In this document: piece after piece, positions 6,501 through 64,000 of the stretch
Layout: every line of letters begins with the position of its first letter
Numbering within the stretch: the first letter of the stretch is position 1
NCBI GenBank assembly: GCA_010093815.1
Contig: ML996587.1
Reading direction: 5' to 3' (one strand)
Source of the DNA: Pseudovirgaria hyperparasitica
Taxonomy: Eukaryota
DNA: 64,000 nt
The notes under the pieces: generated by a model
What the model was told of the DNA's origin: nothing
Databases searched by the model: none
The model's input: the letters and a program-made list of their open reading frames with translations, nothing else
Position numbers and translations under genes: made by a program

Positions 6501-7330
6501 CTTATTATTACTAGATTATTCTAAATAGATACTATATAAAGTAGTTACGTAAGAAGATATAGATATCTATAAAGTTAAGTAGATACTTAGCTAGTAATAC
6601 GCCGAAGATAGTATATAGCTATATAAAATTTATTAGAAAGAATATAATCCTAATAATAATAATAATAATATTATATAACTAGGTAGAGTAGTACTCTATA
6701 GGCCTATGCCTCCTCTAGTCTAAGCCACTATATAAGAAGAAACCCTATAGGGAAAAACTTCCTTATGTCTATAACTATATCTCGTTAAACCTCTATTTTA
6801 TCTTAGGTATATAGCTATAGGGTACGCCTATTAGCCTATAGCCTATATTACCGTTATTTTACCCTTAGGTAGCACGTGTAGGTGCGGAGGTTATTAGTTA
6901 AGGGCTGCCCTTAACTAATAATCGGGGTTCTCCTAGGGTTCTTCCGGTATATATCGGGTTACTACCGGCATATACCGGGTCTCTTCCGGTATATATTTCC
7001 AGGTCCACTAGTACTAGAGGAGTAGTAGATATATAAGTATCTATCGGGAGACGTCCTTAGGGTACTTATTAAGCTATTATACGATATCTAAAGTCTTCAT
7101 AACGTAGATAAGCTATTACTATTATATATGGAGATTAGGGCATATAGCTAGATAGTAGCGTATTATATCTCTCCGGCCGTATGCCTTATACTATAGGGAG
7201 GTGTCGGGAACGCCTCTCTTATGGATGTAGTATAGGAGTCCCATGGCGCCCGTTCGGGCTTAGATGATATAATCCTAATAAAGATACTTAGAAACCTATA
7301 ATAAATATTAGTAAAGTAGTAATATTAGTA
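3581..7330 (+). pseudogene. Gypsy pol relic (RT-RNase H-integrase-chromodomain), interrupted by a LINE fragment
   Basis: Motifs in Gypsy order once TAA/TAG are read as Gln/Trp: ILFVKKKD..L.LYVNY, KTTFRTRY, YLDD-like, SDRG, KKLNY..I.LY. Confidence 0.88.
6657..7265 (-). mobile_element. 5'-truncated Tad1-like LINE (about 610 bp of the 3' end) inserted in the Gypsy A chromodomain
   Basis: Reverse complement of the LINE 3' end at about 17250-17860 with a (TAA)n tail. About 15-bp TSD ATATAATCCTAATAA at 6642-6656 and 7267-7281. The empty site is seen in family A copy 2 near 22140. Confidence 0.9.
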
Positions 7331-7489
7331 TATAAGTAGCGATTAGTAAAGGAAGCTATAGAATTATAGAGAATTATACTAAAGTACGGCGATTTAATGT
7401 TTTTTAGTATAGTTTAGCGCTAAGAACGGCCGTCTAAAAGAAAGAAGGTAAAAGAGATATAGATCTTTAAAACATTTATTCTAAGGAAT

Positions 7490-7580
7490 TAAGGAACTTC
7501 CTTAGAAAGTTCGAACTTAGAACTCCCTTAGAAAGTTTAAACTTAGAACTTCCTTAGAAAGTTTAAAGTTAGAACTTTAA
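7490..7580. repeat. Tandem repeat of about 26 bp (TTAGAACTTCCTTAGAAAGTTTAAAC-like, 3-4 copies) in the Gypsy A 3' region
   Basis: Units are directly visible. Confidence 0.75.
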
Positions 7581-9568: not shown

Positions 9569-11857
9569 ATTATAGATAGACTTATAAAGATATCTAGATA
9601 TATCCCTATATAGAAGATAATTATATTAAAAGAACTAGTATAAGTATTCTAGAATAAGATTATTAAGGTCCATAGTATACTAAAAAGAATTATTATAGAC
9701 TAAGGGAGTATATTCATATCTAAATTCTAGATGTTATTCTATAAAATGGCTAGTATAAATAGAAATATATTAATAGTATTCTATCTATAAATAGATAGTT
9801 AGATAGAGTAATGGAACTAAACGCTTAAGGCCTATCTTTATATATTCTATAATTTTAAATAAGACGACTAGGCCTCTCTACTAAGTATAGTAGAATTCAT
9901 ATATAATAATAGTTATTATAATATAATAGATATTATACTCTTCTAGGCGAACCTAGAACGTAGTCTAAGGATAGATTTTAAACCTTATACGGTCTAGTTT
10001 AACCGAATAATAGATATTAATATCTATATATAGAAACTAGTAATTAAAATCTTTAAAACTATATATAACTATCGTATAATAATCTAGTAAGTAAATAAGT
10101 TATATATAAAGTACTATAATAGATTAGTTAAAGATTAAACATATAAGGAGAGATATAAAGTCCTTCTTAATATCTATAATATATAGACGTCGCGAGTAAA
10201 TAAAAAGCTTAACTATAAAATAGCTAGTCCCTTCTAAATTAAACGCTATATTAGTATAAGAGTCTATAAGCTTAATCTAGAAAATAATATAAAAGTCTAT
10301 AATATATTCTATATCTTATTACTTAAAAGGTTTTAATCTAATATATATAATTATATAAATATATAATTATACTCTATTATACCCTAAGATAGACTAGATA
10401 TATATAAAGTAGACTATATTATTAAATATAGGCTCGATAAGAATAGTATCTAGAAGTATTAAATCTACTAGAAGAACTATACTAAGGATAAGAATACCTA
10501 GGAACCTATAGTATATATCTTAAGTACCGCGATATCTATATATAAGTAGAGGTTATAGGGTAATATATTACTACTATAAACCTAGTACTATTAGGGCTAT
10601 TATAAAAAGAAGAAGAATACTATAGAAAATAAAGTATTAAGTTATAAATCTTAAACGTATACTAGGAAAACTCTATAAGATAGCCCTATAATTTAAGCGA
10701 TATATAGTTACTAAATATAAAGAAAATATAAATAACTATTATAGGCACGTAATATAATATATTATAATAGAATAATATAGAAAAGTCTAGAATAGACTAA
10801 TATAGACTATTATATATAAGAAGAATATAGAACTAAGAAACTAAAAAGGTACCCTACTATAGAATTAAACTCGCGATATATAATATAAAAAGTTAGAGTA
10901 CCTAAACTAATAACTACTAGACTACTAGTTTAGATACTCTAATATAATTTAGAGAGATAAACTAATTTATATATAATATCTATACTTAAGTAACTAAAAG
11001 GAAACTAGAACCTAGAATTTAATAGTTATAGAATAAATAGGAACGTATATAATATTATTAAGTTAAGAATTAAATTACTAGAGAACTAGTAGATAGATAT
11101 CTAAACGGTCTAAAAAGAACTAAAATAGATAGAAACTAGATAGATAGAGCTAATATATACTATATAGAAACCCTAGTAAATAGAGCTATAGAGCTACTTC
11201 TCTATCTTATTCTTCTCTTTAGAGTAAACTAACTAATCTAGATAGATAATATAGTAGTAGAGGTTAGATACCTTATTCTCTAGAGTAGATATCTAATTAA
11301 CTAGAGTCTAGTAGAAAAAGAACTACACGCTAGAACAGAGCAACTAGATCTAAAGTTAGCTAATATAATCTAGAATAATCTAGAATAGAATATATACCCT
11401 CTTATAAGGTAACTTAGAAGAAGAACTAATAGATCTCTTATAAGATCTATTAGTAGTATAAGTTAGATAGAAAGAGATACTATAAATCTCTTCTATAGCC
11501 TTAGTAGCTAAAACTAACTCCCTAGAATAGATAGTCTAGATACTAGAAATCTTATAGTGACTAAAAATTATAAGCTAAGATTAATAGTAATTAATAGTTT
11601 CTAAACTTATACTTTAATAACCAAAAACTTCTCACACCCTAACGGACTAAACTAGTCAATTCGGGGCAAAACAGCGATTTACATACATTAAACAATAGAG
11701 TATACCAAGTATAATAACCTCCGACATACGTACGTACGTATAGCGTATAATACACGACGATACCGACGTATAGAGACACTATATATATACGCTTAAAGAC
11801 TCTTTAATAATATAAGCATAGACTATATCTAATAAACGCCGATACGCTAACCCCCTT

Positions 11858-11888
11858 TTATTAGTTAAGGGCTACCCTTAACTAATAA
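11858..11888. repeat. 31-bp palindrome TTATTAGTTAAGGG-NNN-CCCTTAACTAATAA (representative copy of about 11)
   Basis: Also at 6891, 17596, 32075 (decayed), about 35717 (half), 44111, 48888, 51931, 56454, 58326 and 61951 (imperfect). Confidence 0.92.
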
Positions 11889-14159
11889 CCATGGCGGCTT
11901 TAGGTATCGTAATACCCTAGTAGACGCCGGATATACCCCTACTAGTATAGTAGAAACGGCTATATAGCGATATTAATATAGATAGCTAGATACCTATCTA
12001 AAATATAGGAACTAACTAAGGGTGTAAAGTACTATAGATAACCTAGACCGAGGGGACCCTGAGAGGGGAGACCCTTCTAGATAAAATTAAATACTAGATA
12101 ATATATATAGAGAGGGACGCTAAGAAGGGAAAGAAGACCCTCCTTTATATATTCTAGGACCTTATCTAGAATCTAAGAGGAATTACGGAGGAAGAAAGGA
12201 AGTTACCATGAGAGGAACCTAGTAGTAGACTCGACTAAATAGAAGCCAGCCTACGGAGAATCTAGGAAGAGCTATTCTAAGGTGAGCGCTATAACACGTG
12301 GGCTTAGATTATAGTAATACCCGGAGCTACCGTACTAAGGACTACTAGAACTATAGATAGAGTATATAGTATACGTATCGTAATCTAGGATAAGGACACG
12401 CTAGCGTAGGTCTAATAGGCATCCCTAAAGGAAATTATAAATAAGATTAACGAATAGAAAGGAATATAGTCGAGCGTCGTGGCTACTAAAGTTACGCTAG
12501 GTAGGGTAGTACTTACTACTATAATAAATACTACGTAGTAAAACATCTCGTAAGATCCGAATATAATAGGTAGTATCTTCCCCGGCGCGTCTATTAGGGT
12601 AGCTATATACCCGATTATAGTATATATAGTACCCGTACGGGGATAGGCTATCGGAGTAGAGGATATTATACGTATAGAATAATCTAACACGCGAAAATAC
12701 CTAGGGATTAAGATCGTAAAAGCGTGGTAGAAGAACCCATAGGCGATTAAGACGACGGCGAAAAAACACTCTACTATAATCATAGAGCTGCGAGACCCCG
12801 CCCTCGTATAATATATTATATAGAAGGGATTCCTAGTAGAAGGAGAGCTCCTTATAGCCGAGCCATAGGATAGGGCATAGGTAATAATATAGTACTTTAA
12901 CTATTAAGGGTATAGATATACTATATAAAGGTACTTATAGAAGACTAAGTGCGGATAGTACCGTAGAGACTATACTATCTAGGAGTACCCTTATAAACCG
13001 CGAGGAGACGGACTAAGAAACAGGGACATAGTATAGTATTTAAACTATAACGGGAAATACCCGTCGTAGTCGTTAACGTGTATAAAATACAAATAGATTA
13101 TAGAATATATTCGCACGATAAAAGCGAGAGGCGCGAGATAGTTATAGAATATAATACCTACCACGGGCCCTTCCTTTATAACACCCCTAACCTCCCCTCC
13201 GGAAGGTAGTTAGACGGGATAGTAGACTATCCTAAAGATAATAGGACGACTAAAAGGCATAGTTAAAGCCGCTACCGCGCGAGGATAGTCGCGCCTCTAA
13301 GGAATAAGTATATAGGTATATATACTCCCTAGTACCTAATAAGGGACTAGAATATACTCTAAATTATATAGGTAAATATATAATATAAAAGGGAGAACTA
13401 GGCGACGCTCCTCGAAGAGACCGGGGCTATAATACTCGCTATCTAGGAACTCTATAAATACTACCAGACGAGTAAACCAACCACACACCCCGGATACTAT
13501 ACTATACACCCTCTAGAACTAGAAAGACAAGTCCTCTTCTATATTTATAGGTTAATACTACTCTTATTATAGTCGTATACTAAGCGCGATAACCTTAGAA
13601 TAACACTACACCTATAAATAGATATAGGCCCCCTATATATATATAATATATATAACTAATAATATATACTTATACTAGACGAGATACTTAAGGGTACTAT
13701 AGAACTAGAGTAATACATCCTCCTAGGAGACTTTAACCTCTACTACTAATAGTAGGGAGGCCTAGCCGTAGTAAGGGAAGAACTTAGAGTAAGAGAACTA
13801 TATACCCGCTACCACGACTTCCTATACCTACTTACACCTATAGAATAAGTTATATAGAAAAAACATAAATAGGACGAAGACGGGTCTACGCTTAACCTTA
13901 CCTTTGTCACGGAGTATATTAGTTACCGGATCTAATACTACCGCCTAAGCTAGGTATAGACGGATTCCGACTATAAATATATAGAAACCGTAATAAACGT
14001 ATATACCCCGAATAAATAATAGGGACGATAGATATAGAAGGACACCGACTAGGAAAAGTACCTAAAGGACCTAGAATCGGCGATCCTAGATCCCTCTATA
14101 GTCGATATATCTAATAACCTAGCCATAGACTAGGCCGTATAGATACTCCTATAAATATA

Positions 14160-15107
14160 ATAATAATAATAATATTAATATTAGTGTTTAACTAGGAAGA
14201 ACTATATATATAGCCATATATATGCTCCACAGGCTTAGGCCTCCTCTAGTATTAGCTGCTATGTATATAAGAAAACCTCCTATGATTAGCTCCCTAACTA
14301 GACCCTATTACTAACCTAACCTAGCCTAGTCTAAGTCCTCGAATCCCATTAGGTAATAAACTTACTTCTTATCCTTATATTAGGCTTTTATTACTATATT
14401 AGTACCGGCTCTTAATAACGCCCTAACCAACTATAGTAGGTATTACCTTTCTTATAATTGGGTAGGTCGCTAGGCTAGGCCTAGTCTTTTATTTCTATAT
14501 TACCGTGTTTTTTCCTATCTATGGGAATATAGCTTTACGCCGGGTAGTAGTTATTAATTAAGATAACTAATGCCGGAGGGGGTATATATCTAATAGGTCC
14601 ATGCCTTAGCACTAACCCTAGCTAGGCCGAATTCGGAAATTATTCTTCGGGGCTATATAATTATCTATAGATAGGCGGGATACTTAATTAGGTATTACCG
14701 TCTGTTTCGTGGTTACCAAGCCGGAGTAAGCATAAGCTAAGCCGGATTAGGGTAGACAAGGCCCCGGTATATAGTGAAAATTCTATGATTCGAGCTAAGC
14801 TAGTTATGGGTCTAGCCGCTCTAGGCGTCGCTCTACTACTTAAGGTGGCTTGGTAGGTGGCTATATTAGGTAATTCTCATCATGTAATAACGGTATAGTC
14901 ATTTTCACATTACCTAATGGTCGCTTAGGACTAAGTAGTTATATAACGGTAACCTTCACGTTACGTGCTCGCTTAGCCCCGTATACTTTTTAATAGAGCG
15001 TGCGAAAACTAGTATGTAAAAAGGTAGCCGTTATAGGATTCGAACCCATAACGTTAGATAATAAACGCTTCTAGTAACGTAGCATACTACTACTACGCCA
15101 CCTGGCC
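14160..15107 (-). mobile_element. tRNA-derived SINE (about 950 bp) with a LINE-related 3' end
   Basis: 13-14 bp TSD (C)TCCTATAAATATA. Absent from LINE copy L2 (empty site about 46615-46630). Head has an A-box TGGCGTAGTAG (15090-15100) and a B-box GGTTCGAATCC (15036-15046). (TAT)n tail. Confidence 0.82.
15023..15107 (-). promoter_or_regulatory. tRNA-like Pol III internal promoter (A and B boxes) at the SINE head
   Basis: Minus strand reads GGCCAGGTGGCGTAGTAGTAG...ATGGGTTCGAATCCTATAACGGCTACCTTTTT. Confidence 0.75.
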
Positions 15108-18100
15108 TCCTATAAATATACTAGAATACGAGAAATAAACACGTACTATACTAAATATACTAGCCCCTAGAAGTAAAGGGGATTTCTTAAGTACGGGAAA
15201 GTAGATAAGACGCCCGAAGGCTATACACACGTATATACTATATAAGAATACCCGAGTCGTAGAAAGAATAGAAGAAAGCGATATAATAACGCGATAAAGT
15301 CCTCCGTAACGAAAGGCGTAAATAGTAGTATATAATTACTAGTTAATAGACACGATACGTAATAGGGCTATGGCGTATAGCGAAATAGGCTAAGGGCGTA
15401 GACACTCCGACACCCCCGCTACTTATGTCTCCCCTAATATATTAGGGGAGAATATACTCCACGAGCCTTAAGAAAACTAAGGCCCTATAGAAGACCATGT
15501 TCCCTCTCCCGGAACTAGTAGACCTATTAGACGTTCACGGCGCTAAATACCTATACGCGGTAGATATCCCTAAAGAAGTTACGGAGGAGGACATACTTAA
15601 TATTATTAAGATACTCCTAAATGATAAAGCACCCGAACTAGATGGAATTCTAAATTAATACCTAAAAAGTACTATAAAAGCGACCCTACCGCTTATTACT
15701 TATATATTCTAAGCATGCGTCACGTAGGGGTACCACCCCTAGAGCTTCCGAGTTACCTATACTATTATACTCCCGAAACTAGGAAAGAGCCCTAACTCCC
15801 TAAAGGAATAGAGACTAATCGCCCTTCTCTTCTACCTAGGTAAGATACTAGAGGCTACGATAGCGAAGAAGATAAGTACCGCGGTATAGAAATATAATCT
15901 CCTCCCTCCGAACTAGAAGGTAAAGGTAGATAGCTCTCTAATAATAGCTATCTAATATATTATTAAAGTCGTCTAGGCCGTATAGAAATAGGGACGGGTA
16001 GTATCGCTCCTCTCCCTTAATATGGCCGGAGCGTTTAATAAGGTAAACTATATAAGACTTATTTATAATCTCCGGATAAGACGAATACTAGCATGGATTA
16101 TACGCTTTATATAGTTATTCCTTATAGGAAGAATAACTTAGATATATATCCCTAGGTACTAGAGCGAATATAAAGAGACGGTATACGACATCCTATAAGG
16201 GAGCACTATCTCTCTAATCCTATTCCTCTTCTTTACGGTAGACCTTCTTTAAGGAATAAAGTATATAGAAATAGTCGGATACGCCGATAATATATACCTC
16301 CTAGCTATTAATAATAATACTAACCAAACGTATAGACGACTAGAATAGAACTATAAGAGATACCTCTAGTAGATAAAACGCCACGGAGTAAAGTTCGCCC
16401 TAGAGAAATACTAGCTTATATACTTTATTAACTATTAAGGGAAATAGATAACTAGGGAAGGCGAACGACGCCCCCGAATCGACGTATTTAATAAATTACT
16501 AGTATAAAGTATACGCGCGCTTGGAGTTATACTAGATAGTAAGCTTAAATAGGGACTATAAGTAGCATACGCCGTCTCTAGGGCCCTCTAGATAGAAGCC
16601 GCTATATAATAGATTATAGCCTCTACGTAGAGAACCGCCTAGGATAAGGCACGCTAGCTATATATATCTATAGTACGACCCGCCTTTACGTACGGATACG
16701 AGTACTAGTATATAGCCCTTATATAGACTAGGCGAATAAAGATCGAATCTATATAGAACCGTATACTCCGTCTTATATTAGGCGTATATAAAGCTACTAA
16801 CACGGTACTACTACGACGCGAGATAGACGTTATAAGTATATATAACTTCTACTAGATATAGAGGGTAGTATACTTCACTAAATAATAAGTATAGAAACGT
16901 ATAGAAAACGTAGAATATACTTTTACCGCGCTACGCGTACGAATTAGTATATATTACCGCGCACTTCTATATATAGGCCGGAATCGAATACGGTATAGGT
17001 GCTTAATAGAAGCCGACTCTAGCTAAGTAGTATAAGAAGTCCGAGATAACCTAGACGCTCTCCTAGACTAGTAGAGCCTTTAAGAACTCGTAAAAAATAT
17101 ATAGTCGTGGACTTAAGATACGTAGAAAGAGGCACTCCGTGCCTACTAGACCTCCTAGTAGGATAGGTACCTAGAGTGGATTCGAGGGCTATAGAAGGAA
17201 CCGAGTAAATAGATATATAAAGGGCTAACGAAAGCCTAAGTATCTATACTTATCTAAGCCCGAACGGGCGCTATAGAACTTCTATACTATATCTATAAGA
17301 GAGGCGTTCCTAATACCTCTCTATAGTATAAGGCGTATAGCCGGAGAGGTATAATACGCTACTATCTAGCTATATACCCTAACCTCTATATATAACGGTA
17401 ATAGCTTATCCACGTCATGAAGACTTTAGATATCGCACGATAGCTTAATAAGTACTCTAAGGACGTCTCCTAATAGATACTTATATATCTACTACTTCTC
17501 TAGTACTAGTGGACCCGGAAATATATACTAGAAGAGACCCGGTATACGCTAGTAGTAACCTAATATATACCGGAAGAACCCCGGGAGAACCTCGATTATT
17601 AGTTAAGGGTAGCCCTTAACTAATAACCTCTATATCTATACGTGCTACCTAAGAGCGAAATAACGGTAATATAGGCTATAGGCTAATAGGTGTACTCTAT
17701 AGCTATATACTTAAGACGAAATAGAGGTTTAACGAGATATAGTTATAGATATAAGGAAGTTTTTCTCTATAGGGTTTCTTCTTATATAGTAGCTTAGACT
17801 AGAGAAGGCATAGGCCTATAGAGTACTACTCTACCTAGTTATATAATATTATTATTATTATACTTTAATAACCTCTAGAAAGAGCTTATAGTACTCTCTA
17901 AACTCCCTATATATAGAAGCTAGATAACTACTAGAACCGCTAAGAGTCTTATAGATATAAAGATTATTATATATATCTTATATATAAATAGAAATCTAAA
18001 AATATATTAGTATAGATAACTTTAGATTACTCTAGACTAAAATAGTCTAATAGACTTATCTAAAGATAAACTTTACTAAGAATAGTATAGTAGTAGTAGC

Positions 18101-27947: not shown

Positions 27948-27957
27948 TTATTATTAC

Positions 27958-28052
<95 letters not shown>

Positions 28053-28212: not shown

Positions 28213-28214
<2 letters not shown>

Positions 28215-29256: not shown

Positions 29257-31600
<2,344 letters not shown>

Positions 31601-43770: not shown

Positions 43771-46700
43771 ATAATAATAATAATATTATATAACTAGGTA
43801 GAGTAGTACTCTATAGGCCTATGCCTCCTCTAGTCTAAGCTACTATATAAGAAGAAACCCCATAGGGAAAAACTTCCTTATATCTATAACTACATCTCGT
43901 TAAACCTCTATTTCGTCTTAAGTATATAGCTATAGGNNNNNNNNNNACTATATAAGAAGAAACCCCATAGGGAAAAACTTCCTTATATCTATAACTACAT
44001 CTCGTTAAACCTCTATTTCGTCTTAAGTATATAGCTATAGGGTACGCCTATTAGCCTATAGCCTATATTACCGTTATTTTACCCTTAGGTAGCACGTATA
44101 GATGCGGAGGTTATTAGTTAAGGGCTGCCCTTAACTAATAATCGGGGTTCTCCCGGGGTTCTTCCGGTATATATTAGATTACTACTAGCGTATACCGGGT
44201 CTCTTCTAGTATATATTTCTAGGTCTACTAGTACTAGAGAAGTAGTAGATATATAAGTATCTATTAGAAGACGTTCTTAGGGTACTTATTAAGCTATTAT
44301 ATAATATCTAAAGTCTTTATAATATAGATAACCTATTACTATTATATATAGAGGTTAGAGTATATAGCTAGATAGTAGTATATTATACCTCTCCGGCTAT
44401 ACGCCTTATACTATAGGGAGGTATTAGAAACGCCTCTCTTATAGATATAGTATAGGAGTTCTATAGCGCCCGTTCGGGCTTAGATAAGTATAGATACTTA
44501 GGCTTTCGTTAGCCCTTTATATATCTATTTACTCGGTTCCTTCTATAGCCCTTAAATCTACTCTAGGTATCTATTCTACTAGGAGGTCTAGTAGGCACGG
44601 AGTGCCTCTTTCTACTTATCTTAAATCTACGACTATATATTTTTCACGAGTTCTTAAAGGCTCTACTAGTCGAGGAGAGCGTCCGGGTTATCTTAGACTT
44701 CTTATACTACTTAGCTAGAGTCGGCTTCTATTAAGCACCTATACCGTATTTAATTCTAGCCTATATATAGGAGTACGCGGTAATATATACTAATTCGTAC
44801 ACGTAGCGCGGTAAAAGTATATTCTACGTTTTCTATACGTTCCTATACTTATTATTTAGTGAAGTATACTACCCTCTATATCTAGTAGAAGTTATATATA
44901 CTTATAACATCTATCTCGCGTCGTAGTAGTACTATATTAGTAGCTTTATATACGCCTAATATAAGACGGAGTATACGGTTCTATATGGATTCGAGCTTTA
45001 TTCGCCTAGTCTATATAAGGGCCGTGTACTAGTACTCGTATCCGTACGTAAAGGCGGGTCGTACTATAGATATATATAGCTAGCGTGCCTTATCCCGGGC
45101 GGTTCCCTACGTAGAGACTGTAATCCGTTATATAGCGGCTTCTATCTAGAGGGCCCTAGAGACGGCGTATACTACTTATAGTCCCTATTTAAGCTTACTA
45201 TCTAGTATAACTCCGAGCACGCGCATGCTTTATACTAGTAGTTCATTAAATGCGTCGATTTGGGGGCGTTATTCGCCTTCTCTAGTTATCTATTTCCCTT
45301 AATAATTAATAAAGTGCATGAGCTAGTATTTCTCTAGGGCGAACTTTACTCCGTGGCGTTTTACCTACTAGAGGCACCTCTTATAGTCCTATTCTAGTCG
45401 TCTATACGTTTAGTTAGTATTATTATTAATAGCTAGGAGGTATATATTATCGGCGTATCCGACTACCTCTATATACTTTATTCCTTAAAGAAGGTCTACT
45501 ATAAAGAAGAGGAATAGGATCGGAGAGATGGTGCTCTCTTATAGGATACCGTATGCCGTCTCTTTATATTCGCTCTAGTATCTAGAGATATATATCTAAG
45601 TTATTCTTCCTATAAGGAATAACTATATAAAGCGTATAATCCATGCTAGTATTCGTCTTATCCGGAGGTTATAAATAAGTCTTATATAGTTTACCTTATT
45701 AAACGCTCCGGCTATATCGAGGGAGAGGAGCGATACTACCCGTCTCTATTTCTATGTAGCCTAGATAACTTTAATAATATATTAGATAGCTATTATTAGG
45801 GAGCTATCTACCTTTACCTTCTAGTTCGGAGGGAGAAGATTATATTTCTATACCGCGGTACTTATCTTCTTCGCTATTATAGTCTCTAGTATCTTACCTA
45901 GGTAGAAGAGAAGGGCGATTAGTCTCTATCCCTTTAGAAAGTTAGGGCTCTTTCCTAGTTTCGGGAGTATAATAGTATAGGCGACTCGGAAGCTCTAGGG
46001 GTAGTACCCCTACGTAACGTATACTTAGAATATACGAGTAATAAGTAGTAGGGTCGCTTTTATAGTACTTTTTAGGTATTAATTTACAATTCCATCTAGT
46101 CTAGGTGCTTTATTATTTAGGAGTATCTTAATAATATTAAGTATATCTTCCTCCGTAACTTCTTCGGGGATATCTACCGCGTATAGATATTTAGCGCCGT
46201 GAATATCTAATAGGTCTACTAGTTCCGGGAGAGGGAATATAGCCTCCCGTAGAGCCTTAGTTTTCTTAAGGCCCGTAGAGTATATTCTCCCCTAATATAT
46301 TAGGGGAGGCATAAGTAGCGGGGGTATCGGAGTATCTATGCCCTTAGCCTATTTCGCCATGCGCTATAGCCCTATTATATATCGTGTCTATTAACTAGTA
46401 ATTATACGCTACTATTTACGCCTTTCATTATAGAGGACTTTATCGCGTTATCGTATTACTTCCTTCTATTCTTCCTATAACTTAGGTATTCTTATATAGT
46501 ATACGCGTCTATATAGCCTTCGGGCGTCTTATCTACTTTCCCATACTTAAGGAATCCCCTTTACTTCTAGGGGCCGGTATATTCGGTATAGGACGTGTTT
46601 ATTTCTCGTATTCTAGTATATTTATAGGAGTATCTATACGGCCTAGTCTATAGCTAGATTATTAGATATATCGACTATAGAGGGATCTAGGATCGCCGAT

Positions 46701-49153
46701 TCCAGGTCCTTTAGGTACTTTTCCTAGTTAGTATCCTTCTATATCTATTATCCCCGTTATTTATTTAGGGTATATACGTTTATTATAGTTTCTATATATT
46801 TATAGTCGGAATCCGTCTATACCTAGCCTAGGCGGTAGTATTAGATCCGGTGACTAATATACTCCGTGGTAAAGATAAGGTCAAGCGTAGACCCGTCTTT
46901 ATCCTATTTATATTTTTTCTATATAACTTATTCTATAGGTATAAGTAGGTATAGGAAGTCGTGGCAGCGGGTATATAGTTCCCTTACTCTAAGTTCTTCC
47001 CTAACTATAGCTAGGCCTCCCTACTATTAGTAGTAGAGGTTAAAGTCTCCTAGGAGGATATGTTACCCTAGTTCCGTAGTACCCTCGAGCATCTTATCTA
47101 GTATAAGTACACGTTATTAGTTATATATATTATATATATATAGGGGGCCTATATCTATTTATAGGTGTAGTGTTATTCTAAGGTTATCGCGCTCGGTATA
47201 TAACTATAATAAGAGTAGTATTAACCTATAAATATAGAAGAGGACTCGTCTTTCTAGTCCTAGAGGGTATATAGTATAGTATCCGGGGTATATGGTTAGT
47301 TTACTTATCTAGTAGTATTTATAGGGTTCCTAGATGGCGAGTATTATAGCCCCGGTCTCTTTAAGGAGTGTCGCCTAGTTCTCTCTTTTATATTATACGT
47401 TTACCTATATAATTTAGAGTATATTCTAGTCCCTTATTAGATACTAGGGAGTATATATTTCTATATACTTATTCCTCGGAGGCGCGACTATCCTCACGCG
47501 GCAGCGGCTTTAACTATACCTTTTAGTTATCCTATCGTCTTCGGGATAGTCTACTATCCTACCTAACTACCTTCTAGAGGGGAGGTTAGGGGTATTATAA
47601 AGGAAGCGCTCGTAGTAGGTATTATATTCTATAACTATCTCGCGCCTCTTACTTTTATCGTGCGAATGTATTCTATAACCTATTTACGTTTTATACACGT
47701 TAACGACTATAATAGGTGTTTCCCGTCGTAGTTTAAATACTATACTATATCCCTATTTCTTAGTCCGTCTCCTCGCGGTTTATAAGGGCACTCCTAGGTG
47801 GCGTGGTCCCTACGGTACTATCCGCACTTAGTCTTCTATAAGTACCTTTATATAGTATATCTATACCCTTAATAGTTAAAGTACTATATTATTACCTATG
47901 CTCTATCCCATGGCTCGGCTATAAGGAGCTCTTCTTCTATTAGGAATCCCTCCTATATAATACGTTATGCGAGGGCGGGGTCTTAGAGCTCTATAATTAT
48001 AGTAGAGTGTTTTTTCACCGTCGTCTTAATCGCCTATAGATTCTTCTACCACGCTTTTACGATCTTAATCCCTAGGTATTTTCGTATATTAGATTATTCT
48101 ATACGCGTAATATTCTCTACTCCGATAGCCTATCCCCGTATAGATACTATATATACTATAATCGGGTATATAGCTACTCTAATAGACGCGCTAGGGAAGA
48201 TACTACCTATCGCGTTTAGATCTCGTAAGATATTTTACTACGTAGTATTTATTATAGTAGTAAGTACTACCCCACCTAGCGTAACTTTAGTAGCTATAAT
48301 ACTTAACTATATTCCTTTCTATTCGTTAATCTTATTTATAATTTTCTTTAGAGATGTCTATTAGACCTACGCTAGTATATCCTTATCCTAGATTATAATA
48401 CGTATACTATATACTCTATCTATAGTCCTAGTAGTCCTTAGTACGGTAGCTCCGGGTATTACTATAATCTAAGCCTACGTGTTAGGGCGCTTACCTTAGA
48501 ATAGCTCTTCCTAGATTCTCTATAGGCTAGCTTCTATTCGGTCGAGTCTACTACTAGGTTCCTCTCGTGGCGACTTCCTTTCTTCCTCTATAATTTCTCT
48601 TAGATTCTAGATAAGGTCCCGGAATATATAAAGGAGGGTCTTCTTTCCCTCCTCGGCGTCCCTCTCTATACGTATTACCTAGTATTTAATTTTATCTAGG
48701 AGGGTCTCCCCTCTCGGGGTCCCCTCGGTCTAGGTTATCTATAGCGCTTCGCACCCTTAGTTAGTTCCTATATTTTAGATAGGTGTCTAGCTATCTATAT
48801 TAATATTACTATATAGCCGTTTCTACCGTACTAGTGGGTGTATATCTAGCGTATACCGGGGTATTACGATGCCTAAGGCCGCCATGGTTATTAGTTAAGG
48901 GCAGCCCTTAACTAATAAAAGGGGGTCGGCGTGTCGGCGTTTATTAGATATAGTCTATACTTATATTATTAAAGAGTCTTTAAGCGTATATATATAGTAT
49001 CTCTATACGTCGGTATCGTTACGTATTATATACTATACGTACGTACATGTGTCGGAGGTTATTATACTTAGTATACTCTATTATTTAATATATGTAAATC
49101 GCTATTTTACCCCGAATTAACTAGTTTAGTCCGTTAGAGTGTGAGAAGTTTTT
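43771..49153 (-). mobile_element. Full-length Tad1-like LINE (L2), RIP-inactivated
   Basis: Reverse complement of L1 without the SINE. About 17-bp TSD TCTCTATATCTATAATA at 43754-43770 and 49154-49170. Confidence 0.92.
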
Positions 49154-51402: not shown

Positions 51403-52170
51403 TATAGTAAGCTATTCTTAGGCGTGTTTCTTTTAAGGGAAGAGGTTTACTCTTTAATAAAATAGATGTAACTTTGTTATGTCTATCTCTTCTATATACT
51501 AAAAGTACTCTTTAATCTTATAACTACTTATTAGGTCTCTTATATAATAGAATAGGTCTATATAATACTTATAATCGATTCTTTAATAACTATATCTATT
51601 AATTAATATCTATAGAAGTCTATAAATATAAAGAAAAGCTAAATACTTAAATATTAGTAATAGAGAGTATATATATATCTTAAAATTAGTAGAGAAATAT
51701 TCTCCTTAAGTATATAAATATACTATATAATTAAGCTAGGGATATATATATATATATATAGGGCTATAGATACGGCCTTCTATATATACCTCCCCGGCCT
51801 ATAGAACTACTACCCTTAGTAGTATAATAGCTACTATAGAAACTATATAGAAAATACCTAAAGAAACTATCTAGAAAATAAAGAAAAAGACTAATAATAA
51901 GTAGTTATTATAGATAAATATTAGTCTAGATTATTAGTTAAGGGTAGCCCTTAACTAATAATTAGATAGATTTAGATATCTATTCTTATTATAATAAAGC
52001 TTCTCTAGTAAGGATATGGCTTATCCCTAAAGTAGCCTATTATATAGAGTATTCTAGCTTTTCTAAAGGTAAAGGTACTTAGAAGGCTCGGAAGAGTATA
52101 AGTAGATTTATAGTAAGTATTAATAGAGTATAAATAGTAACTAGCTAGTAGGCGAGTAAAGTAGTAATTA
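51403..52170 (-). mobile_element. 3' end of a diverged Gypsy family D element (D'): LTR 51403-51784, PPT, 3' UTR with palindrome
   Basis: Aligns with 57806-58360, including the PPT GGGGAGG (minus strand) and the palindrome at 51931-51961. Confidence 0.75.
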
Positions 52171-56216: not shown

Positions 56217-57805
56217 AAAAAAACTTCTCACACCCTAACGGACTAAACTAGTTAATTCGGGGCAAAACAGCGATTTACATACATTAAACGATAGAGTATA
56301 CTAAGTATAATAACCTCCGACACACGTGTGTACGTATAGTATATAATACGCGACGATACCGACGTATAGAGACACTATATATAGTTACTTAAAGACTCTT
56401 TAATAACACGAGTATAGACTATATCTAATAAACGCCGATATGCTAACCCCCTTTTATTAGTTAAGGGCTACCCGTAACTAATAACCATGGCGGCCTTAGG
56501 CATTATAATACCCTAGTATACGCCGGATATACCCCTACTAGTATAGTAGAAACGGCTATATAGCGATATTAATATAGATAGCTAGATACCTATCTAAAAT
56601 ATAGAAACTAACTAAGGGTATAAAGTACTATAGATAACCTAGACCGAGGGGACCCTGAGAGGGGAGACTCTCCTAGATAAAATTAAATACTAGGTAATAC
56701 GTATAGAGAGGGACGCCGAGAAGGGAAAGAAGACCCTTCTTTATATATTCCGGGACCTTATCCGGAACCTAAGAGGAATTATAGAGGAAGAAAGGAAGTC
56801 GCTATAAGAGGAACCTAGTAGTAGACTTAACCGAATAGAAGCTAGTCTACGGAGAATCTAGGAAGAGCTATTCTAAGGTAAGCGCCCTAATACGTGGGCT
56901 TAGATTATAGTAATACCCGGAGCCACCGCACTAAGGACTACTAGGACCATAGATAGAGCATATAGTATATATATTATAATCTAGGATAAGGACACGCTAG
57001 CGTAGGTCTAATAGATATCCCTAAAGGAAATTATAAATAAGATTAATAAATAGAAAGGAATATAGTTAAGCGTCGTGGCTACTAAAGTTACACTAGATAG
57101 AGTAGTACTTACTACTATAATAAATACTACGTAGTAAAACATCTCGCGAGATCCGAATATAATAGGTAGTATCTTCCCTAGCGCGTCTATTAGGGTAGCT
57201 ATATACCCGATTATAGTATACGTAGTACCCGTGTAGGGATAGACTATCGGAGCGGAGGATATTACGCGTATAGAATAATCTAACACGCGAAAATACCTAG
57301 GGATTAAGATTGTAAAAGCGTAGTAGAAGAACCTATAGGCGATTAAGACGACGGCGAAAAAACACTCTACTATAATTATAGAGCTCCGAGACCCCGCCCT
57401 TATATAATATATTATATAGGAGGGATTCCTAATAGAAGAAGAGCTCCTTATAGCCGAGCCATAGAATAGAGTATAGATAATAATATAGTACTTTAACTAT
57501 TAAGGGTATAGATATACTATATAAAGGTACTTATAGAAGACTAAGTACGGATAGTACTATAGAGACTACGCTATATAGAAGTACCCTTATAAACCACGAG
57601 GAGACGGACTAAGAAATAGGGACATAGTATAGTATTTAAACTACGACGAGAAACACCCGTTATGGTCGTTAACGTATATAAAACGTAAATAGATTATAGA
57701 ATACATTCATATAATAAAAGCGAGAGGCGCGAGATAGTTATAGAATATAATACCTACTATAAGCCCTTCCTTTATAATACCCCTAACCTCCCCTCCGGAA
57801 GGTAG
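56217..57805 (+). mobile_element. 5' part of a Tad1-like LINE (L4), interrupted by Gypsy family D
   Basis: Near-identical to 11623-13208; homology stops at CCGGAAGGTAG, where the LTR begins. Confidence 0.9.
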
Positions 57806-60800
57806 TATGGTAAGCTATCGCCACGTATATCCCTTTTTATAAATGGCTATGTTCTTAGTATAGTAGTCGCGACGAACTCACAAGTATCTCTTCTAGGTAT
57901 TATAAGTTCTCTTTGAACGCACGACTTCTTATTAGTTCTCTTTTATAATAGGACGGGTCTATATAATACTCTTAATTAATTCTTTAATAGCTAAGCCTAA
58001 TAATCAATACCTATAGAGGCCTATGAACGTAAGAAAAGGTCGAATTATCGAATATTAGTGATGGGGGAAGCATGCCGAGTAGAATGACCGAGGAAAATGC
58101 CCTCCTTAAATATATAATAAAGCCATGTAATCGAGCTAGGGACACATACATATAGGGCTATAGGAGCGGCCTTCCATATATACCTCCCCGGCCTATAGAA
58201 CTACTACCCTTAGTAGTATAGTAACCGTGTAAGAAACCGTGTAAAGAACGCCTAAAAGAAAGACCTTAATATGAATAAAATGCGCCCCTAGTAAACCTCT
58301 CGGCGCGGGTAAACCTTAGCCCGGATTATTAGTTAAGGGCAGCCCTTAACTAATAATTAGGTAGGCTTTCAGGCGCCTAATCTTAGTACTCGAGGTCGCG
58401 AGCCAGCTTCTAAAGAATTATATCACTTATCTTAGAGAGGTTAGATTCCTCCTCGTCGGATAGTTTATTAGACCTCTCCTATCCGTAGAAGTTCTCTTTA
58501 ATATTATCTAGGCCCGCGTCGGGCTCGAATTTCTTAAAATTAATTAGCCGCTTAGCGGCGCGCGCCTCGTTAAATTCCTTCTAGAATAACCTATCCCCAT
58601 AGACTAGCTTTTCCTACCTTACTATTTTCTTAAAGGTCTCCACGAATACCCTCGAGCCCTCCTTAAACTAGGCGTCTACCTTAGCTTTAAGTTATTAAGG
58701 ACTTACGTTAAGCCACGTAGCTACCTCTTCTTTTACCTTCTAGCTATTCTATCTTTTACGGCCGACTAATACGTTACTAACGGCGTTAAAACTCGGGAGT
58801 TAAACTACGGCTAGGAAGGTAAAAGGAATCGCGCTATATTTATTAGAAAATCCTAACGGAGACGTAGGTCCCGGAGTTAAATTCCTATAAGCTACTACGA
58901 GTTATTCCTATGTACCTATTTTAGGTACTTCTATTATTATATAATTAGGGCTAATCGTAATATACCATGGAAGCATCGTACGTCTTCCACCCTTTACGGG
59001 ACCCTAGGCGCCGTATATTATTAGTAGGCTAGAGATGCGTACTTTAAGGGACTAGTAGGGGACCGGAACGAAGGGACTAAATCGTTTCCTATTATCTATA
59101 TTATAGATCTTATCGTTAATAGCCGTAATTATACTGTTTCGATTGACCCCCTCGCGGAGCTTAGCCTTCGACTACTATTTATTTAAGAACTTATAGAAGC
59201 GGGGAACGATTATAGTATAGTCGTCACTTCGTTCATCGTCGAGACTAATACTCCCCTAGATTATATTAAACCCGTGTCTATCGCTAGGATCGAGGATTCG
59301 ATTGATAGCGTTATTAAGATACTTAAAACCCGTCTTATTGCCCCTATCCTAGGACTTCGCATAGTACGGGTATAAGATTAGATAGTAGTTAAGATCGGGC
59401 CGAAGAGCGATATAGGTAAGCTAGTAAAGTAGGTATTACCTAATAAACTATTAGATATAGGAGTGGTATATAGTTCGTAGCTAGCCGTAGTTCGATTTCT
59501 TATTAAATATACGCTAGTAGTACTTATATATATTAAATTCATCCCTCGCGAGTTCTAGGATACTCTTATTAAGTATAGAGGTCGTCTTTTTAAGTGGCTC
59601 GAAGAGCCCTTTAATATTAATACTTCTAGTACGTTCCCACTTATCGAAGAGTTACCTACCTATTCTACCGTCCTCCTTCTAAATTATAAATATAATACTA
59701 GTAAGAATGGTTTTAATATTAATAACTTACTTCGGGGTCTCTAGGGCCTAGTAACGATAGACATCTAATGCCTCTATCGGATAAGGTAGCCGCGCGTACT
59801 TCGCGAACTAGGTATAGCGGTCCTTATAAACTTTAAGGGCCCCCACGTTATCTCTAAACTCATATACTATTTTAAGTCTCGCTACTAGGTTCAAGTAGGA
59901 CACGCTAACGAGTATATTATTCTTTCTAGCCACGTCTTAGTAATGCTTATAGTAGACTTTATACGGAATAGCCATATTACCTATCTACGCTTTCTAGCGC
60001 ACTAGTAGGGCCATTCCCTTAATGCTCGTAAAATTCTTCTTTAATAATATAGCTACCTTAAAAGTCTTCGTTACTAAAGGCGCGTATTAATACTTCTTAG
60101 GCTCGTCCTCTTCCTCGACCGATACTATTATCTTAGGGTATGAACTAAGAATAACCGGGGATTATTATATAGGCGCCCCTAGTAATTACTAAGGGCTGGT
60201 AGATAAGGCACGTCCGCGAGTAGGTTTTATCGGCGTGGCCGTAATAGGTACTAAAGAGGTTCTTACATAGCCCGGTAAGGGACGTTTACTAGTAGTAGTA
60301 GGAGGAATACTTACTTTAAACGGACGACTAGCTTCGAAGAGACGATATACTACTAAACTAGAAGGCGTGCTTCGTGGAGGGGACTTCACCGTAGGCGTTA
60401 CCTATACTAGTTTTAGCGATGGTAAGGTCTAAGGCGGAGGCGATGTACTTATCTCTTTAATTTATAGATAGTATTTAACGGGCCTATAAACCATTCTACT
60501 TATCCGTGACTATTAACTAGCGGGGATAATAAGTCCCGTCTTATTATAGAACGTTAGTTTATTTTATCGGCTAGGGTAGTTCGAGAGTTACTAGAGAGAT
60601 AGACCGTCCTCGTTACTATCGCTAGCTAGGGTAGTATTGATATTAGAGCTCTAAAGATATACCTTGATTCCCCTTCCCTTCTATCCCTAGCCGATTCGGG
60701 ACTATAGGGATGCATTTAACTAGTTCCTCGCTCTCGCCTATGTCCGCACTCGTAAGAGCGCTACTAGCTTTTCTATAAAGTTCTATATTTACTAGAGCTG

Positions 60801-61074
60801 TCCGAGGGCGGATTAGAGTAACTAGCCGTTATTATTAGGGAGGTCTTTTCGCTAGTTTTATAGGATTGTATTTTTAGCTTTTAGGATGCGGGAGTTAGTG
60901 TCTCTTCCACGACGAATTATCTTATAGACTTCTTTCGGAATAGAGGAGTTAATCTTTGCCTTACTATACTCTATTACGGCTCCTACTTCCTAGAAGAGGT
61001 TAACTATACTACTGAAGAGCTATTCTATAAGGCTGGTGATGTAAAGGAGATTATTAAACGTGTCTAGAATATAG
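57806..61074 (-). mobile_element. 3' end of a Gypsy family D element: 3' LTR 57806-58178, PPT, palindrome and a large accessory ORF
   Basis: 373-bp LTR is the reverse complement of 61075-61447. PPT GGGGAGG lies immediately inside it (58183-58189). Confidence 0.85.
58383..61074 (-). pseudogene. RIP-mutated accessory ORF: coiled-coil-like and Pro/Ser/Thr-rich N-terminal part plus a putative 2OG-Fe(II) dioxygenase (PhyH-like) domain
   Basis: One frame translated by hand over about 58383-60120, with TAA/TAG stops only. De-RIPed motifs: GWLRTMYHS, LRPD..LISYPYYAK, TGFKHLD, NMIQGSISLDDE..DDCT.IVP.FH, VRIS.P..HGA.GP, RRTMLPW. Confidence 0.7.
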
Positions 61075-64000
61075 TATAGAAGGCCGCTCCTACAGCCCTA
61101 CATGTATGTGTCCCTAGCTCGATTACATGGCTTCATTGTATATTTAAGGAGGGCGTTTTCCTCGGTCATTCTGCTCGGCACGCTTCCCCCATCACTAATA
61201 TTCGACGATTCGACCTTTCCTTATGTTTATAGGCCTCTATAGGTATTGATTATTAGGCTTAGCTATTGAAGAATTGATTAAGAGTATTATATAGACCCGT
61301 CCTATCGTAAAAGAGAACTAATAAGAAGTTATACGTTCAAAGAGAACTTATAATACCTAGGAGAGATACTTATAAGTTCGTCGCGACTACTATACTAAGA
61401 ATATAGCTATTTATAAAAAGGGACACACGTAGCGATAGCTTACTATAATTTTAGAGGTCGTACCTAGACTACGAACTTATAGGGGGAGATTAGAACTCCG
61501 AAACTAGCTTAGGGGAAGTATATAGCGTGTCTAATAAGGTAGTCTAGACTTACTAGATTAAAGCCACGAGTCCGGAAAACAGGGAGTCTAGAGTCGCTAG
61601 GGGCTAGCCTCTTAAAAGTAGCCGTAAAAAGCATGCGTATACTAATATAGGTGATAGCGCGACTCGAAAATGTCTTAGGGGAATAGAATATAAAATAGGG
61701 CTAGATGAAGTAGCAAAGAAGAGTTCAAAAACGATAAATATAACCTGTTTAGTACTACTATAGCTATTATTTATAAACACGGCTACACGAGTATACTACT
61801 TTAGGAACGCCTTACACGAAGATAATAATATAAGTAGGATACCGTAAACCTTATATCGATAAAGACGATAGTAATAGTTTACCTTATAAAGGGATTAATT
61901 AATATAGAGAAGGGATAATAGGTGTTATAGGTAGACGTATTGGGCCAACCTTTAGTTAAGGTAATCCCTTAACTAATAACCTTACCCCTAGCGTCTCCAC
62001 TAGTACACCTACTACTAGTAATAGTGCGATAGGAGCTTAAAATAACGACCTAGTAACTCGTAGAGAGATACTTAACTTCTTCGTAGTATTTGCGCGATAA
62101 GGAAGGATGGTACCTCTATCTACCCTAGCCCCCGAGCGCTTTAAAGGAATAAATATTCTAGCCTTCCTTCGGAAGTACGAGGACATATATATAAACTATA
62201 AAGTTCCGCCTAATAAGAAGATAACCTCCCTACCGTTATACTACGAGGACCATCTCTATCCTACTATTAAAGGAATAAGTGGGTTTTAGAAATAGTAGTG
62301 GGCCACGCTACGTAAAGAATTATTAAAGGAATTCTCTCTATTTAACTCCGCCCTCAAGGAAGGCACTATCTACTTTGTCCGAAAATACGTGGAAATGGTT
62401 AAAGTAGACCCATTCTACTCTCTCTCTATATACTACTCCCGGTATCGTGTTATTACGGAGAAACTTACGGCTAAAGGAAGCCTAAGCTCGTATTCGCGAA
62501 TAGAGCTCTTCCTAGAAGGGCTGCCTAATAGTCTTAAGGCTCGGGCTATAGAGAAATATTAACTTACGATGGAAGCATATAGTTATAACTAGGTAATTAT
62601 CTATGGCTTCGTATTATAAAAGGCTAGAGCACTTAAGGAACTAGCTCGTATTAATAAGTACTTAGCCGCATAAGAGCTGGCCATAGCCATATACTATAAA
62701 TTAAAGATAGGGAGTAAGAAGACTAGCTTAGAAGAGTAGTCATATAAAGAAAGAAGAACTAATGAATTTAGCCACCCCTCTCTAGTCGAAGTACACGTTA
62801 CGCTAGAATCGGATAAGTTTAACGAGATGGTAGAGAGATTTAGTAAACTAGACCTCACGTTAATTAAGATAAAGTCCTACTTTACCTCTAATCCCTTATT
62901 TCTATCCCTTAAGAAGTACGAACCTAAGCTACTTTTGGCTATTATTAACTAGTAGACGCGAAGGCTAAATCTTTTAACACACCCCTAAGTACGAGGCATA
63001 CCTATAGAACTAACGTAAGTTTATCCATAGAATTATATATAGAATAGAGAATACGTCTCTACCCGAGACTTCTAAGGAGGCGTTATAGCCTAGGATAGGC
63101 CTTAAAGACCGATCGTGTATATTACGTACGGAGGAGATTACCTAATATATAGATACCCGGAGATAGTAGAATATATTAGAGACGAATTACTAAATATTAA
63201 CGGGGTATAAGTATTCTAAGGGCGTTTCGGGGCGAACGGAGAAGAAATCCCATTACTACCCTCCTTAGTAGGGCTATAAGCTACTCTATAAGCTATCCGG
63301 AACTACGTAGTAACGGTTTAAAACGGCCTAAGCTAGTACGGAAGGGGAGTAAAGGTTTCCACGTCTATAGTAAATATTAACGCTTTATAGGGAGTACTAG
63401 TATATAGTATTAGTATAAAACCTACGAAGGGTCCCTACTAGGCCTCGGCGGATAGCAATTCGGAAGAAGAAGTTACGTCGCCCGAGAGTAAGAAAGATAG
63501 ATATATAGAATTCTACGAACGCTTCGACGTAGCTAGTAATAGATATATCCGCGAGGAGATAGCCCTAGAAGAGCCCGCTATACTCGTAATATCTAGAAGG
63601 GGGATCACGAAGAGTACACCTAATTATACTAAGGAAAGAAAGATTACCTATCTCCGCGGAATGCGTAAAGGGTAGTATATAAGGATTATCGAGGAATAGG
63701 AGGACGGTAAAAAGAGTAGTAACTAGGGAACGTCTAAATAAGAGCTAACGGCGCCTAAGAATAAGATAGATAAAGGGGATAGCCTAAATCCTAGTTAAAA
63801 GGCACGTATCCGAGACGTTAAGCTTAATAACTATCTACGCGAGGGATAGTGGCTAAGTATAGAAGCTAGCGAAGCATAGCTAGTGCGCGTTCTAGGGATA
63901 ACTATAAATATTACCATTAGTAAACTATTAAGCCTTAATAGCGACTTACGTCGTGCGGTATTCGAGAAGGGCGCCCCCGACTTTATAGCTAGAGAGGTCC
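61075..64000 (+). mobile_element. 5' part of a second Gypsy family D element, continuing beyond the window
   Basis: 5' LTR 61075-61447. PBS-like TAGAGGTCGTACC (TGGAGGTCGCACC de-RIPed, tRNA-Gln-like by inference). gag follows. Confidence 0.85.
62107..64000 (+). pseudogene. Gypsy gag relic
   Basis: APERFKGINILAFLRKYED N-terminus typical of fungal Gypsy gag; RIPed zinc knuckle YITYGGDYLIYRY (=CX2CX3HX4C) about 63118-63156. Confidence 0.75.

Follow-up and report, generated by a model that had tools for sequence, protein, structure and literature searches.

A 31-nucleotide palindrome common to a LINE and a Gypsy retrotransposon of Pseudovirgaria hyperparasitica: a candidate RNA pairing signal

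Cis-acting signals of retrotransposons are normally private to one family. The RNA of Ty1 carries a self-complementary hairpin termed SL1 (PAL1-UCU-PAL2), which has a 3-nt linker, converts in the presence of Gag into a duplex between two molecules and is partly dispensable: mutants lose only about 2-fold in mobility (PMC6844567). The PALs measure 6-7 nt and are family-specific, and a further palindrome lies in gag. In fungal GalEa Copia elements, a hairpin termed CHS adjoins the 5' LTR, where it replaces the PBS, and occurs across families within a species as an "extended CHS" of 33-62 bp (PMC5445492). Sirevirus RM boxes are dyad-symmetric motifs and proposed protein sites, which are kept between divergent retrotransposons of one genus, cluster in LTRs and share a CGG-CCG core (PMC2829016). 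The VANC targets of Arabidopsis VANDAL elements occur in several TE-restricted copies per element beside an extra TE-borne gene; these motifs are 9 nt long, non-palindromic, in one orientation, in non-coding DNA and confined to one family (PMC5735166). Finally, stem-loops near the 3' end of stringent LINEs are essential and family-specific (PMC4176376).

Here we describe a perfect 31-nt palindrome, which is found at five fixed, non-homologous places, two in a LINE and three in a Gypsy element. It resembles Ty1 SL1 as a self-complementary retrotransposon hairpin with a 3-nt loop that is dispensable and has a copy in gag, yet it spans an LTR element and a LINE and avoids the 5' leader, its Gypsy sites being located 500 nt past the LTR (gag frame), in pol and at a 3' ORF stop. 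Like the CHS it is a fungal hairpin that crosses families, whereas its site nearest to an LTR is 500 nt away, it occurs in Gypsy and LINE elements instead of Copia only, and its arms differ from the CTGATCAGT-type arms of the CHS, where the 9-mers CHSeq1 and CHSeq2 include an A/A mismatch. Words of the motif were absent from the text supplements of that report, its slide files with CHS sequences lying perhaps outside the search, and they were not found in the relevant literature, within a limited coverage of subscription papers. The dyad symmetry recalls RM boxes and the TE-restricted copies beside an extra ORF recall VANC targets, although the palindrome is only a candidate target; unlike the stem-loops of stringent LINEs, it is dispensable and shared.

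The window analysed is a stretch of 64,000 nucleotides of contig ML996587.1 (assembly GCA_010093815.1). Eight sites match the motif with at most three mismatches, and 100 shuffles yielded no match at this threshold. A looser scan added the degenerate site at 32075 and a site with a variant centre at 61949-61979, resulting in ten full sites; the eleventh occurrence is a half-site (Table 1). A preliminary description of this DNA had counted about 11 copies in four contexts, of which the copy number stands, as ten full sites plus one half-site, while the contexts become five fixed places. It had rightly placed the motif in non-homologous contexts of LINE and Gypsy elements and outside the host-gene island (0 sites in the un-RIPed island at about 28300-31700), and its imperfect site at 61951 exists at the corrected coordinates given above. 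The pre-RIP form that it proposed, TTATCAG...CTGATAA with GATA-like arms, gives way to the un-RIPed palindrome TTATTAGTCAAGGGCWGCCCTTGACTAATAA, as all four unmutated matches read TTATTAG...CTAATAA. The architecture is a perfect 15+1+15, and in three variants the spacing is fixed and the centre free.

Table 1. Motif sites and their host elements in the window
Feature	Position	Strand
LINE 3' site over ORF2 stop, in 5'-truncated LINE end 6651-7267	6891..6921	-
RIPed Tad1-like LINE copy; 944-bp unrelated insertion at 14163-15106	11623..17861	+
LINE 5' site; ORF1 ATG at 11891	11858..11888	+
LINE 3' site	17596..17626	+
LINE 5' site, heavily RIPed, two further transversions	32075..32105	+
LINE half-site, right arm only; 3' end with 33-nt deletion common to at least 22 copies	35717..35730	+
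RIPed LINE copy, near full-length	43947..49153	-
LINE 3' site	44111..44141	-
LINE 5' site; distance to 3' partner 4777 nt	48888..48918	-
Gypsy site C in older, diverged Gypsy D relative (relic from 51395)	51931..51961	-
LINE 5' site, one private transversion (position 21)	56454..56484	+
Gypsy D copy, 3' part; 3' LTR 57806-58178	57803..61075	-
Gypsy site C, over dioxygenase-like ORF stop, 148 nt before 3' LTR	58326..58356	-
Gypsy D extra ORF, RIP-broken, 5' limit approximate	58350..61050	-
Second Gypsy D copy, 5' part: 5' LTR 61075-61447, gag; continues past window	61075..64000	+
Gypsy site A with altered centre and outer left bases; core TTAGTCAAGG-N5-CCTTGACTAA retained	61949..61979	+

The host LINE encodes the Pfam domains RVT_1 and Exo_endo_phos_2 and a weak zf-CCHC match (E=0.044), and one copy (L038), in which ORF1 is intact, has an (ATT)n tail and a 14-bp target duplication. 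It thus shows the Tad1-like pattern of an ORF1 zinc knuckle, an ORF2 with AP endonuclease and reverse transcriptase (RT), a short-repeat tail and a duplication; the clade name is provisional. The 5' site lies 2 nt upstream of the ORF1 ATG, as previously noted, and this distance is invariable though the 2 nt differ. The 3' site extends across the ORF2 stop. The label "3' UTR" given to such sites earlier is therefore incorrect: in LINE and Gypsy alike they overlap the stop codon of the preceding ORF, which ends in ...DY*. A possible TGA-CTA readthrough into ORF1, suggested by the sequence, found no support in any test.

The Gypsy element possesses LTRs of about 373 bp with 4-bp target duplications (3/3 copies), and its domain order RT-RNaseH-integrase is that of Ty3/Gypsy. 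Site A is located 498-500 nt past the 5' LTR in the gag frame in all three copies, and not in a 5' "leader"; site B lies just past the edge of the window, in the interval from protease to RT (L031:664; window-equivalent 64664 in the second Gypsy D copy), and site C spans the codon that terminates a PhyH-like dioxygenase ORF. Instead of one site near each transcript end, as had been suggested, there are three, of which one is clearly coding and another probably so; those at 58326 and 61949 come from separate copies that run in opposite orientation. The extra ORF belongs to a family of ~900-aa proteins with a PhyH/DUF1479-like 2OG-Fe(II) dioxygenase domain. Since the fold of this family resembles YbiU/GIG2 (Z 17.2, rmsd 2.8, 246 aligned) far more than AlkB/FTO-type proteins (Z 6.4-6.9), the protein gives no evident sign of being a demethylase or of binding DNA. 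Searches with the N-terminal half and with the CxC...CxxH region found no match of their own, and the ESM Atlas returned no usable match for the Cys/His region.

A RIP-tolerant genome-wide search, as the preliminary description had advised, found 484 exact matches and none in the control. Only six unmutated cores exist in the genome, and each derives from a TE, from a chimera or from what is probably the relic of a LINE. The chimera, which is un-RIPed, carries the motif with 21 nt of LINE 5' flank, fused at the motif edge to the RT of another Gypsy. The variant termed C19 is a single copy, a relic with the core kept in a LINE-3'-like setting (z ~3). Four sequencing runs carry the motif (two studies, one organism label; no RNA run among those listed). 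They revealed no empty C19 site, the locus being whole in two of the four, and no differences or joints at this locus in any, and they possibly represent the window's own source. Matches elsewhere were about as frequent as by chance (one of bacterial type in metagenome contigs, none in viral contigs, one in prokaryote genomes), in collections poor in fungal genomes, which are thus no proof of restriction to one species. Rfam yielded no match at gathering score in 104 kb from five sources.

These data bear on the motif as a micro-transposon, earlier proposed on account of a TA duplication, or as a tyrosine-recombinase core site that shuffles modules between sites. In keeping with the latter, ORF1-ORF2 is exactly the stretch enclosed by the two LINE sites, and the 12-bp arms and 7-bp variable spacer resemble recombinase core sites. 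Yet there was no recombinant flank pair among 134 deduplicated sites (about one fifth of all sites; one row with an unreadable flank), and flank-exclusion searches, which covered nine of the ten edge dinucleotides not in use, gave 12 sites (11 LINE, one chimera) and no new context. No consistent target duplication was seen by eye, and no independently inserted copy was found among the 134 classified sites and 12 flank-exclusion matches. This reading is very improbable and already largely refuted.

The flanks differ between contexts, as initially stated, and do not trace the sites to one captured fragment: only one of 40 long-flank homology tests reached p=0.02. The left flanks of the LINE 3' site and Gypsy site B may share a short stretch (p=0.02-0.03 in both tests), a signal that is lost after 40 comparisons. 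In both families the motif itself is more conserved than its flanks. Across four LINE subfamilies, no transversion or indel affects the 30 columns of the 5' site, compared to 79 of 430 columns outside (P ~0.002), and Gypsy site C differs from its older relative by 0/31 transversions within the motif and 65/582 outside. The LINE 3' site is weak evidence in this respect (P=0.05 on ungapped columns), as the motif is part of a longer conserved block of 63 columns.

One LINE branch has lost the signal stepwise. At its 3' site, at least 22 copies lack the left arm. Every one of them ends in an (ATT)n tail of its own, and their flanks, of which no fewer than 20 are distinct, account for as many separate insertions. 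The palindrome is dispensable, because the branch without the left arm still made these insertions. In a sub-branch, three of five fixed differences within 735 columns fall inside the 5' 31-mer (post hoc binomial test, 7e-4, or 0.009 if the centre base is left out). Nine copies bear this doubly mutated 5' site, of which eight have a half 3' site, one is unreadable and none retains an intact 3' site. The 3' left arm appears to have been lost first and the 5' site to have changed after. The two LINE sites look coupled, since it was a sub-branch of the 3'-arm-loss branch that then changed its 5' site. A mutation hotspot at the two 5' positions was rejected, as single mutants number only one and zero, counts which bear on mutation after insertion and not on errors of reverse transcription; error-prone copying through the hairpin could, instead of selection, have produced the clustered changes.

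The half-site branch also decides against a stem-loop of the stringent-LINE type, read by the ORF2 protein for target-primed reverse transcription and later captured elsewhere. Such a mechanism is known (PMC4176376), the site is close to the LINE 3' end, and the C19 relic retains its core in a LINE-3'-like setting. However, the tails and flanks of the 22 copies lacking the left arm rule out a cis-essential element, and the site lies more than 200 nt upstream of the tail, which renders this origin scarcely credible.

Dispensability agrees with a passenger hairpin, neutral or slightly selfish, that template switching or break repair would have carried into places which tolerate it (the edges of ORFs, the single frame free of stops) and that hitchhiking would then have fixed. 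The chimera offers a corresponding joint, and the motif's peptide leaves no trace in the 120 LINE ORF2, 150 dioxygenase and 16 Gypsy pol relatives examined. A passenger would not explain why LINE and Gypsy alike conserve the motif in excess, why two elements carry five sites while host DNA has none of independent origin, or why the ATG stays at 2 nt from the site although these nucleotides vary, and we regard it as unlikely.

A cis-signal, either for RNA pairing or for a protein, remains the best class of explanation. By analogy with Ty1 SL1, we tentatively favour a conserved, non-essential signal that would act at the RNA level. On a lone RNA the palindrome would fold into a 14-bp stem with a 3-nt loop, and nucleic-acid chaperones of the elements might help two sites to open into a 31-bp duplex, which would join the 5' and 3' ends of a LINE RNA, or two RNA copies. 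Computed energies (hairpin -18.1 kcal/mol; 5':3' duplex -53.9 versus -36.2 for two hairpins) indicate that the self-complementary hairpin could pair with a second copy along an extended duplex. Pairing between sites would require the same sequence at each of them, and for this reason identity rather than covariation is to be expected. Paired sites could moreover be a landing place for template switches of the reverse transcriptase, and these could copy the motif between sites and families.

The conservation of the motif and the apparent coupling of the two LINE sites speak for RNA pairing, and so do natural variants. The inherited A10G variant (20 copies; the four examined are LINE 3' sites in sense) retains a G-U pair on the sense RNA while the DNA dyad is broken, and C19 also gives G-U when read in LINE sense. 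Against this, A10G counts as a single event, and a transition of this kind has an even chance of yielding G-U; in the minimum free energy structure of the 5024-nt L038 RNA the sites form local pairs instead of joining 5' to 3'; complementarity between the centre bases of the two sites holds in subfamilies A and C and is lacking in B; and the outer pairs of Gypsy site A are broken on the sense strand. We know of no LINE RNA that dimerises.

Possible, but on balance improbable, is that a dimeric protein recognises the palindrome as double-stranded DNA. This protein would be either a host bZIP factor (Yap/AP-1-like) or an element-encoded, VANC-like one, and would serve activation or anti-silencing in both families. 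Both arms hold TTAGTCA/TGACTAA, a Yap1 element, and the G23T change creates TTACTAA, the Yap1 consensus (PMC6545440, PMC7261193); in our own comparison the extended arm of site C matches the Yap8 13-mer at 12/13. One shared factor would simply account for the cross-family identity, the fixed spacing with a free centre suits a dimer, and the right-arm heptamer of the 3' site survives in all LINE variants examined; the loss branch would have escaped the factor or ceased to need it. Unlike Yap elements, the candidate heptamers are paired in a fixed, partly coding 31-bp dyad, and the conserved stretch exceeds a 7-bp bZIP site. A10G breaks one heptamer in 20 copies, the origin of all six unmutated cores argues against a host site, and the half-site 11-mer ATTATTAGTCA has 22 matches (6 motif copies, 16 non-motif) versus 9 in the control, with no clear host use. 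The YbiU/GIG2-like extra ORF also provides no evident DNA binder.

The palindrome thus looks like a helpful, non-essential pairing signal. A bolder extension, which we consider distinctly improbable, is that LINE and Gypsy RNAs share a long pairing code and form heterodimers, such that LINE RNA would ride in Gypsy particles. If true, these particles would shelter LINE RNA from RNA silencing and provide a route for sequence exchange between orders, and the half-site branch would represent a LINE which had quit the partnership and then shed its now costly 5' hairpin by the ORF1 start. The genome harbours natural controls in its intact, A10G, half-site and doubly mutated variants. A 31-nt signal identical at five places across two retrotransposon orders points either to RNA pairing between these orders or to a trans-acting factor that serves both.

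The window consists of fungal repeat DNA scarred by RIP, apart from a single unmutated host island at ~28.3-31.7 kb. The 31-bp palindrome that the preliminary description had reported here was recovered at 8 places with up to 3 mismatches, and 100 shuffles yielded 0 matches; a looser scan added two sites, and a half-site comprising only the right arm is also present (Table). The occurrence of the palindrome is real, and the other TE families of the window are without it. Throughout the genome (35.4 Mb), a RIP-tolerant pattern had 484 exact matches, against 0 for the reversed control pattern, and 544 matches with one mismatch. A form with a variant centre, characteristic of Gypsy site A, occupies ~62 more genomic places (61 rows and one variant, counted among 75 rows). 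Four un-RIPed copies read TTATTAGTCAAGGGCWGCCCTTGACTAATAA, a perfect 15+1+15 palindrome; the GATA-like original form proposed earlier was not found. The element common to every context is TTAGTCAAGG-N5-CCTTGACTAA.

The LINE family, which we take to be Tad1-like, comprises ORF1 and an ORF2 with an endonuclease-RT; its tail is (ATT)n and its target duplication is 14 bp long. Identity to its nearest database relatives does not exceed 50%, and one un-RIPed copy (L038) carries an internal deletion. Genome-wide, 5' sites (198+9) are about as numerous as 3' sites (192+23), and hence most copies seem to be full length, which is unusual for LINEs. The Gypsy element (~11.4 kb, 373-bp LTRs, 4-bp duplications) has an additional 3' ORF, whose relatives are ~900-aa proteins with a helical N-terminal domain, a disordered linker, an invariant CxC...C motif with a conserved H, and a 2OG-Fe(II) dioxygenase domain. 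In a model (pLDDT 90) built for a natural relative, this domain is nearest in fold to YbiU (Z 17.2) and GIG2 (Z 15.2). The family numbers 542 representatives at E<=0.001, and all 50 genomic candidates scored, among 72 in all, contain internal stops.

Table. Coordinates of features in the window and in other sequences of the genome (L-numbers)
Feature	Position	Strand	Remark
Gypsy-borne extra ORF	58350-61050	(-)	member of widespread ~900-aa protein family
Palindrome, looser scan	32075; 61949
Half-site	35717-35730
Host island	28300-31700		putative genes for a mitochondrial ribosomal protein and a GH47 mannosidase
Insertion in LINE copy	14163-15106		944 bp; no second copy within the window
1.2-kb repeat	32549-33753; L034:5018-6222		L034 version un-RIPed, beside LINE 3' end
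Another perfect 28-bp palindrome	19492-19519; 36331-36358; 42118-42145		in another family's long repeat (probable LTR)
10-bp inverted repeat, 9-nt spacer	7479-7507; 21911-21939		in two copies of another repeat
Identical hairpin, 15-17-bp arms	L034:713-749; L115:1396-1428		un-RIPed, unrelated to the motif
Chimera C47	L036:6870-9362		neighbours presumably dynamin and ankyrin cargo genes
19-nt direct repeat	L042:1193-1325		upstream of single-copy site C19; starts AAACTTCTCA, like LINE 5' end

The palindrome contains stops in two reading frames, and its placement in each element is precise. The LINE 5' site always ends 2 nt before the ORF1 ATG (198 places), these 2 nt differing among subfamilies, and the 3' site provides the ORF2 stop (...ENSDY*; 192 places). 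Likewise, the extra ORF takes its stop (...LPDY*) from Gypsy site C. Sites A and B are read in the third frame: site B lies in the gag-pol frame, in the protease-RT interval, and is translated ISXGLPLTNN, and site A, in the gag frame 500 nt past the LTR, is probably coding.

Conservation was counted from transversions and indels only, as RIP makes neither. Among four LINE subfamilies, the 5' site has 0/30 variable columns versus 79/430 elsewhere (P about 0.002) and forms the longest invariant run of the alignment. The 3' site has 0/30 versus 34/359 ungapped columns (P 0.05), within a conserved block that extends beyond it, and Gypsy site C differs from the older relic at 51931 in 0/31 versus 65/582 columns. 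Beside these counts, a neutral passenger is an improbable reading. The motif seems lineage-specific, because no matching peptide was seen among the protein relatives examined, where the PR-RT linker did not align.

Flank classification assigned 131 of 134 deduplicated sites to one of five contexts, with left and right flanks agreeing; one flank was unreadable and two sites were single cases. Judged by their flanks, the contexts are not homologous, in line with the earlier proposal: over ~185-235 nt, 1 of 40 tests reached p=0.02. Anchored 40-nt tests gave scattered p values of 0.02-0.05; the left flanks of LINE 3' and Gypsy B came up together in both kinds of test, and a short common flank is possible there. 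A search for new contexts excluding known edge bases returned LINE sites and one single case only. In the un-RIPed chimera C47, a host-like ORF start is followed by 52 nt of LINE (21 nt of 5' flank plus the motif) and then by an RT fragment of a different Gypsy, which abuts the motif edge. The other single case, C19, is intergenic, with a symmetric change adjoining the centre; its right flank resembles only the LINE 3' UTR (z ~3, p 0.004-0.006, three related subfamilies), with no significant resemblance to 4 other right and 6 left flanks, and it is read as a putative old LINE end. A micro-element or recombinase site is, alongside these flanks, a very improbable explanation.

In 22 LINE copies the 3' site has lost its left arm; the six copies aligned show a 33-nt deletion bounded by short C runs, and two copies have a longer one. 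The parent of these 22 copies is subfamily C, with 8-9 transversions over 1309 columns. They have their own tails and at least 20 distinct flanks, and therefore retrotransposed after arm loss; an essential RT stem-loop is barely conceivable. An upstream probe of 14 of the 22 found the 5' end in 10, with three sites intact and seven altered at positions 11, 16 and 23. Between the intact and the altered group, 5 of 735 columns show fixed changes, and 3 of these lie within the motif (binomial 7e-4; 0.009 minus the free centre, post hoc). Genome-wide, the altered 5' site occurs in 9 copies, 8 paired with a half 3' site, one interrupted and none with an intact 3' site. The 3' arm was likely lost first and the 5' site decayed afterwards. 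In RIPed copies, the computed hairpin stands at -15.8 kcal/mol without the 5' changes and weakens to -8.5 kcal/mol with them. The inherited change A10G marks another, separate branch (20 copies) and forms a sense-strand G-U pair in the 4 copies examined.

On the features tested, the palindrome belongs neither to CHS, nor to the stem-loops of stringent LINEs, nor to MITEs; it matches no Rfam family, and a literature search of incomplete coverage found no published account. The same sequence, beyond the same shape, recurs at all sites, which needs inter-site pairing or a sequence-specific binder. A putative DNA site is a rather doubtful reading: each arm holds a Yap1-type heptamer that survives in the doubly changed variant (heptamer as in PMC6545440 and PMC7261193), yet no use by the host is evident. 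For RNA pairing, the whole-RNA fold keeps hairpins local and the centre bases are non-complementary in subfamily B, both of which count against it. A PAL-type signal would be nearest in mode of working but differs by position, and Ty1 SL1 is a close analogue, in which mutation costs the element only about half of its mobility (PMC6844567). Since the LINE sites look coupled, G-U variants occur, symmetry reaches the centre and sites lie in coding DNA, we tentatively suggest that the palindrome may act as an RNA pairing signal.
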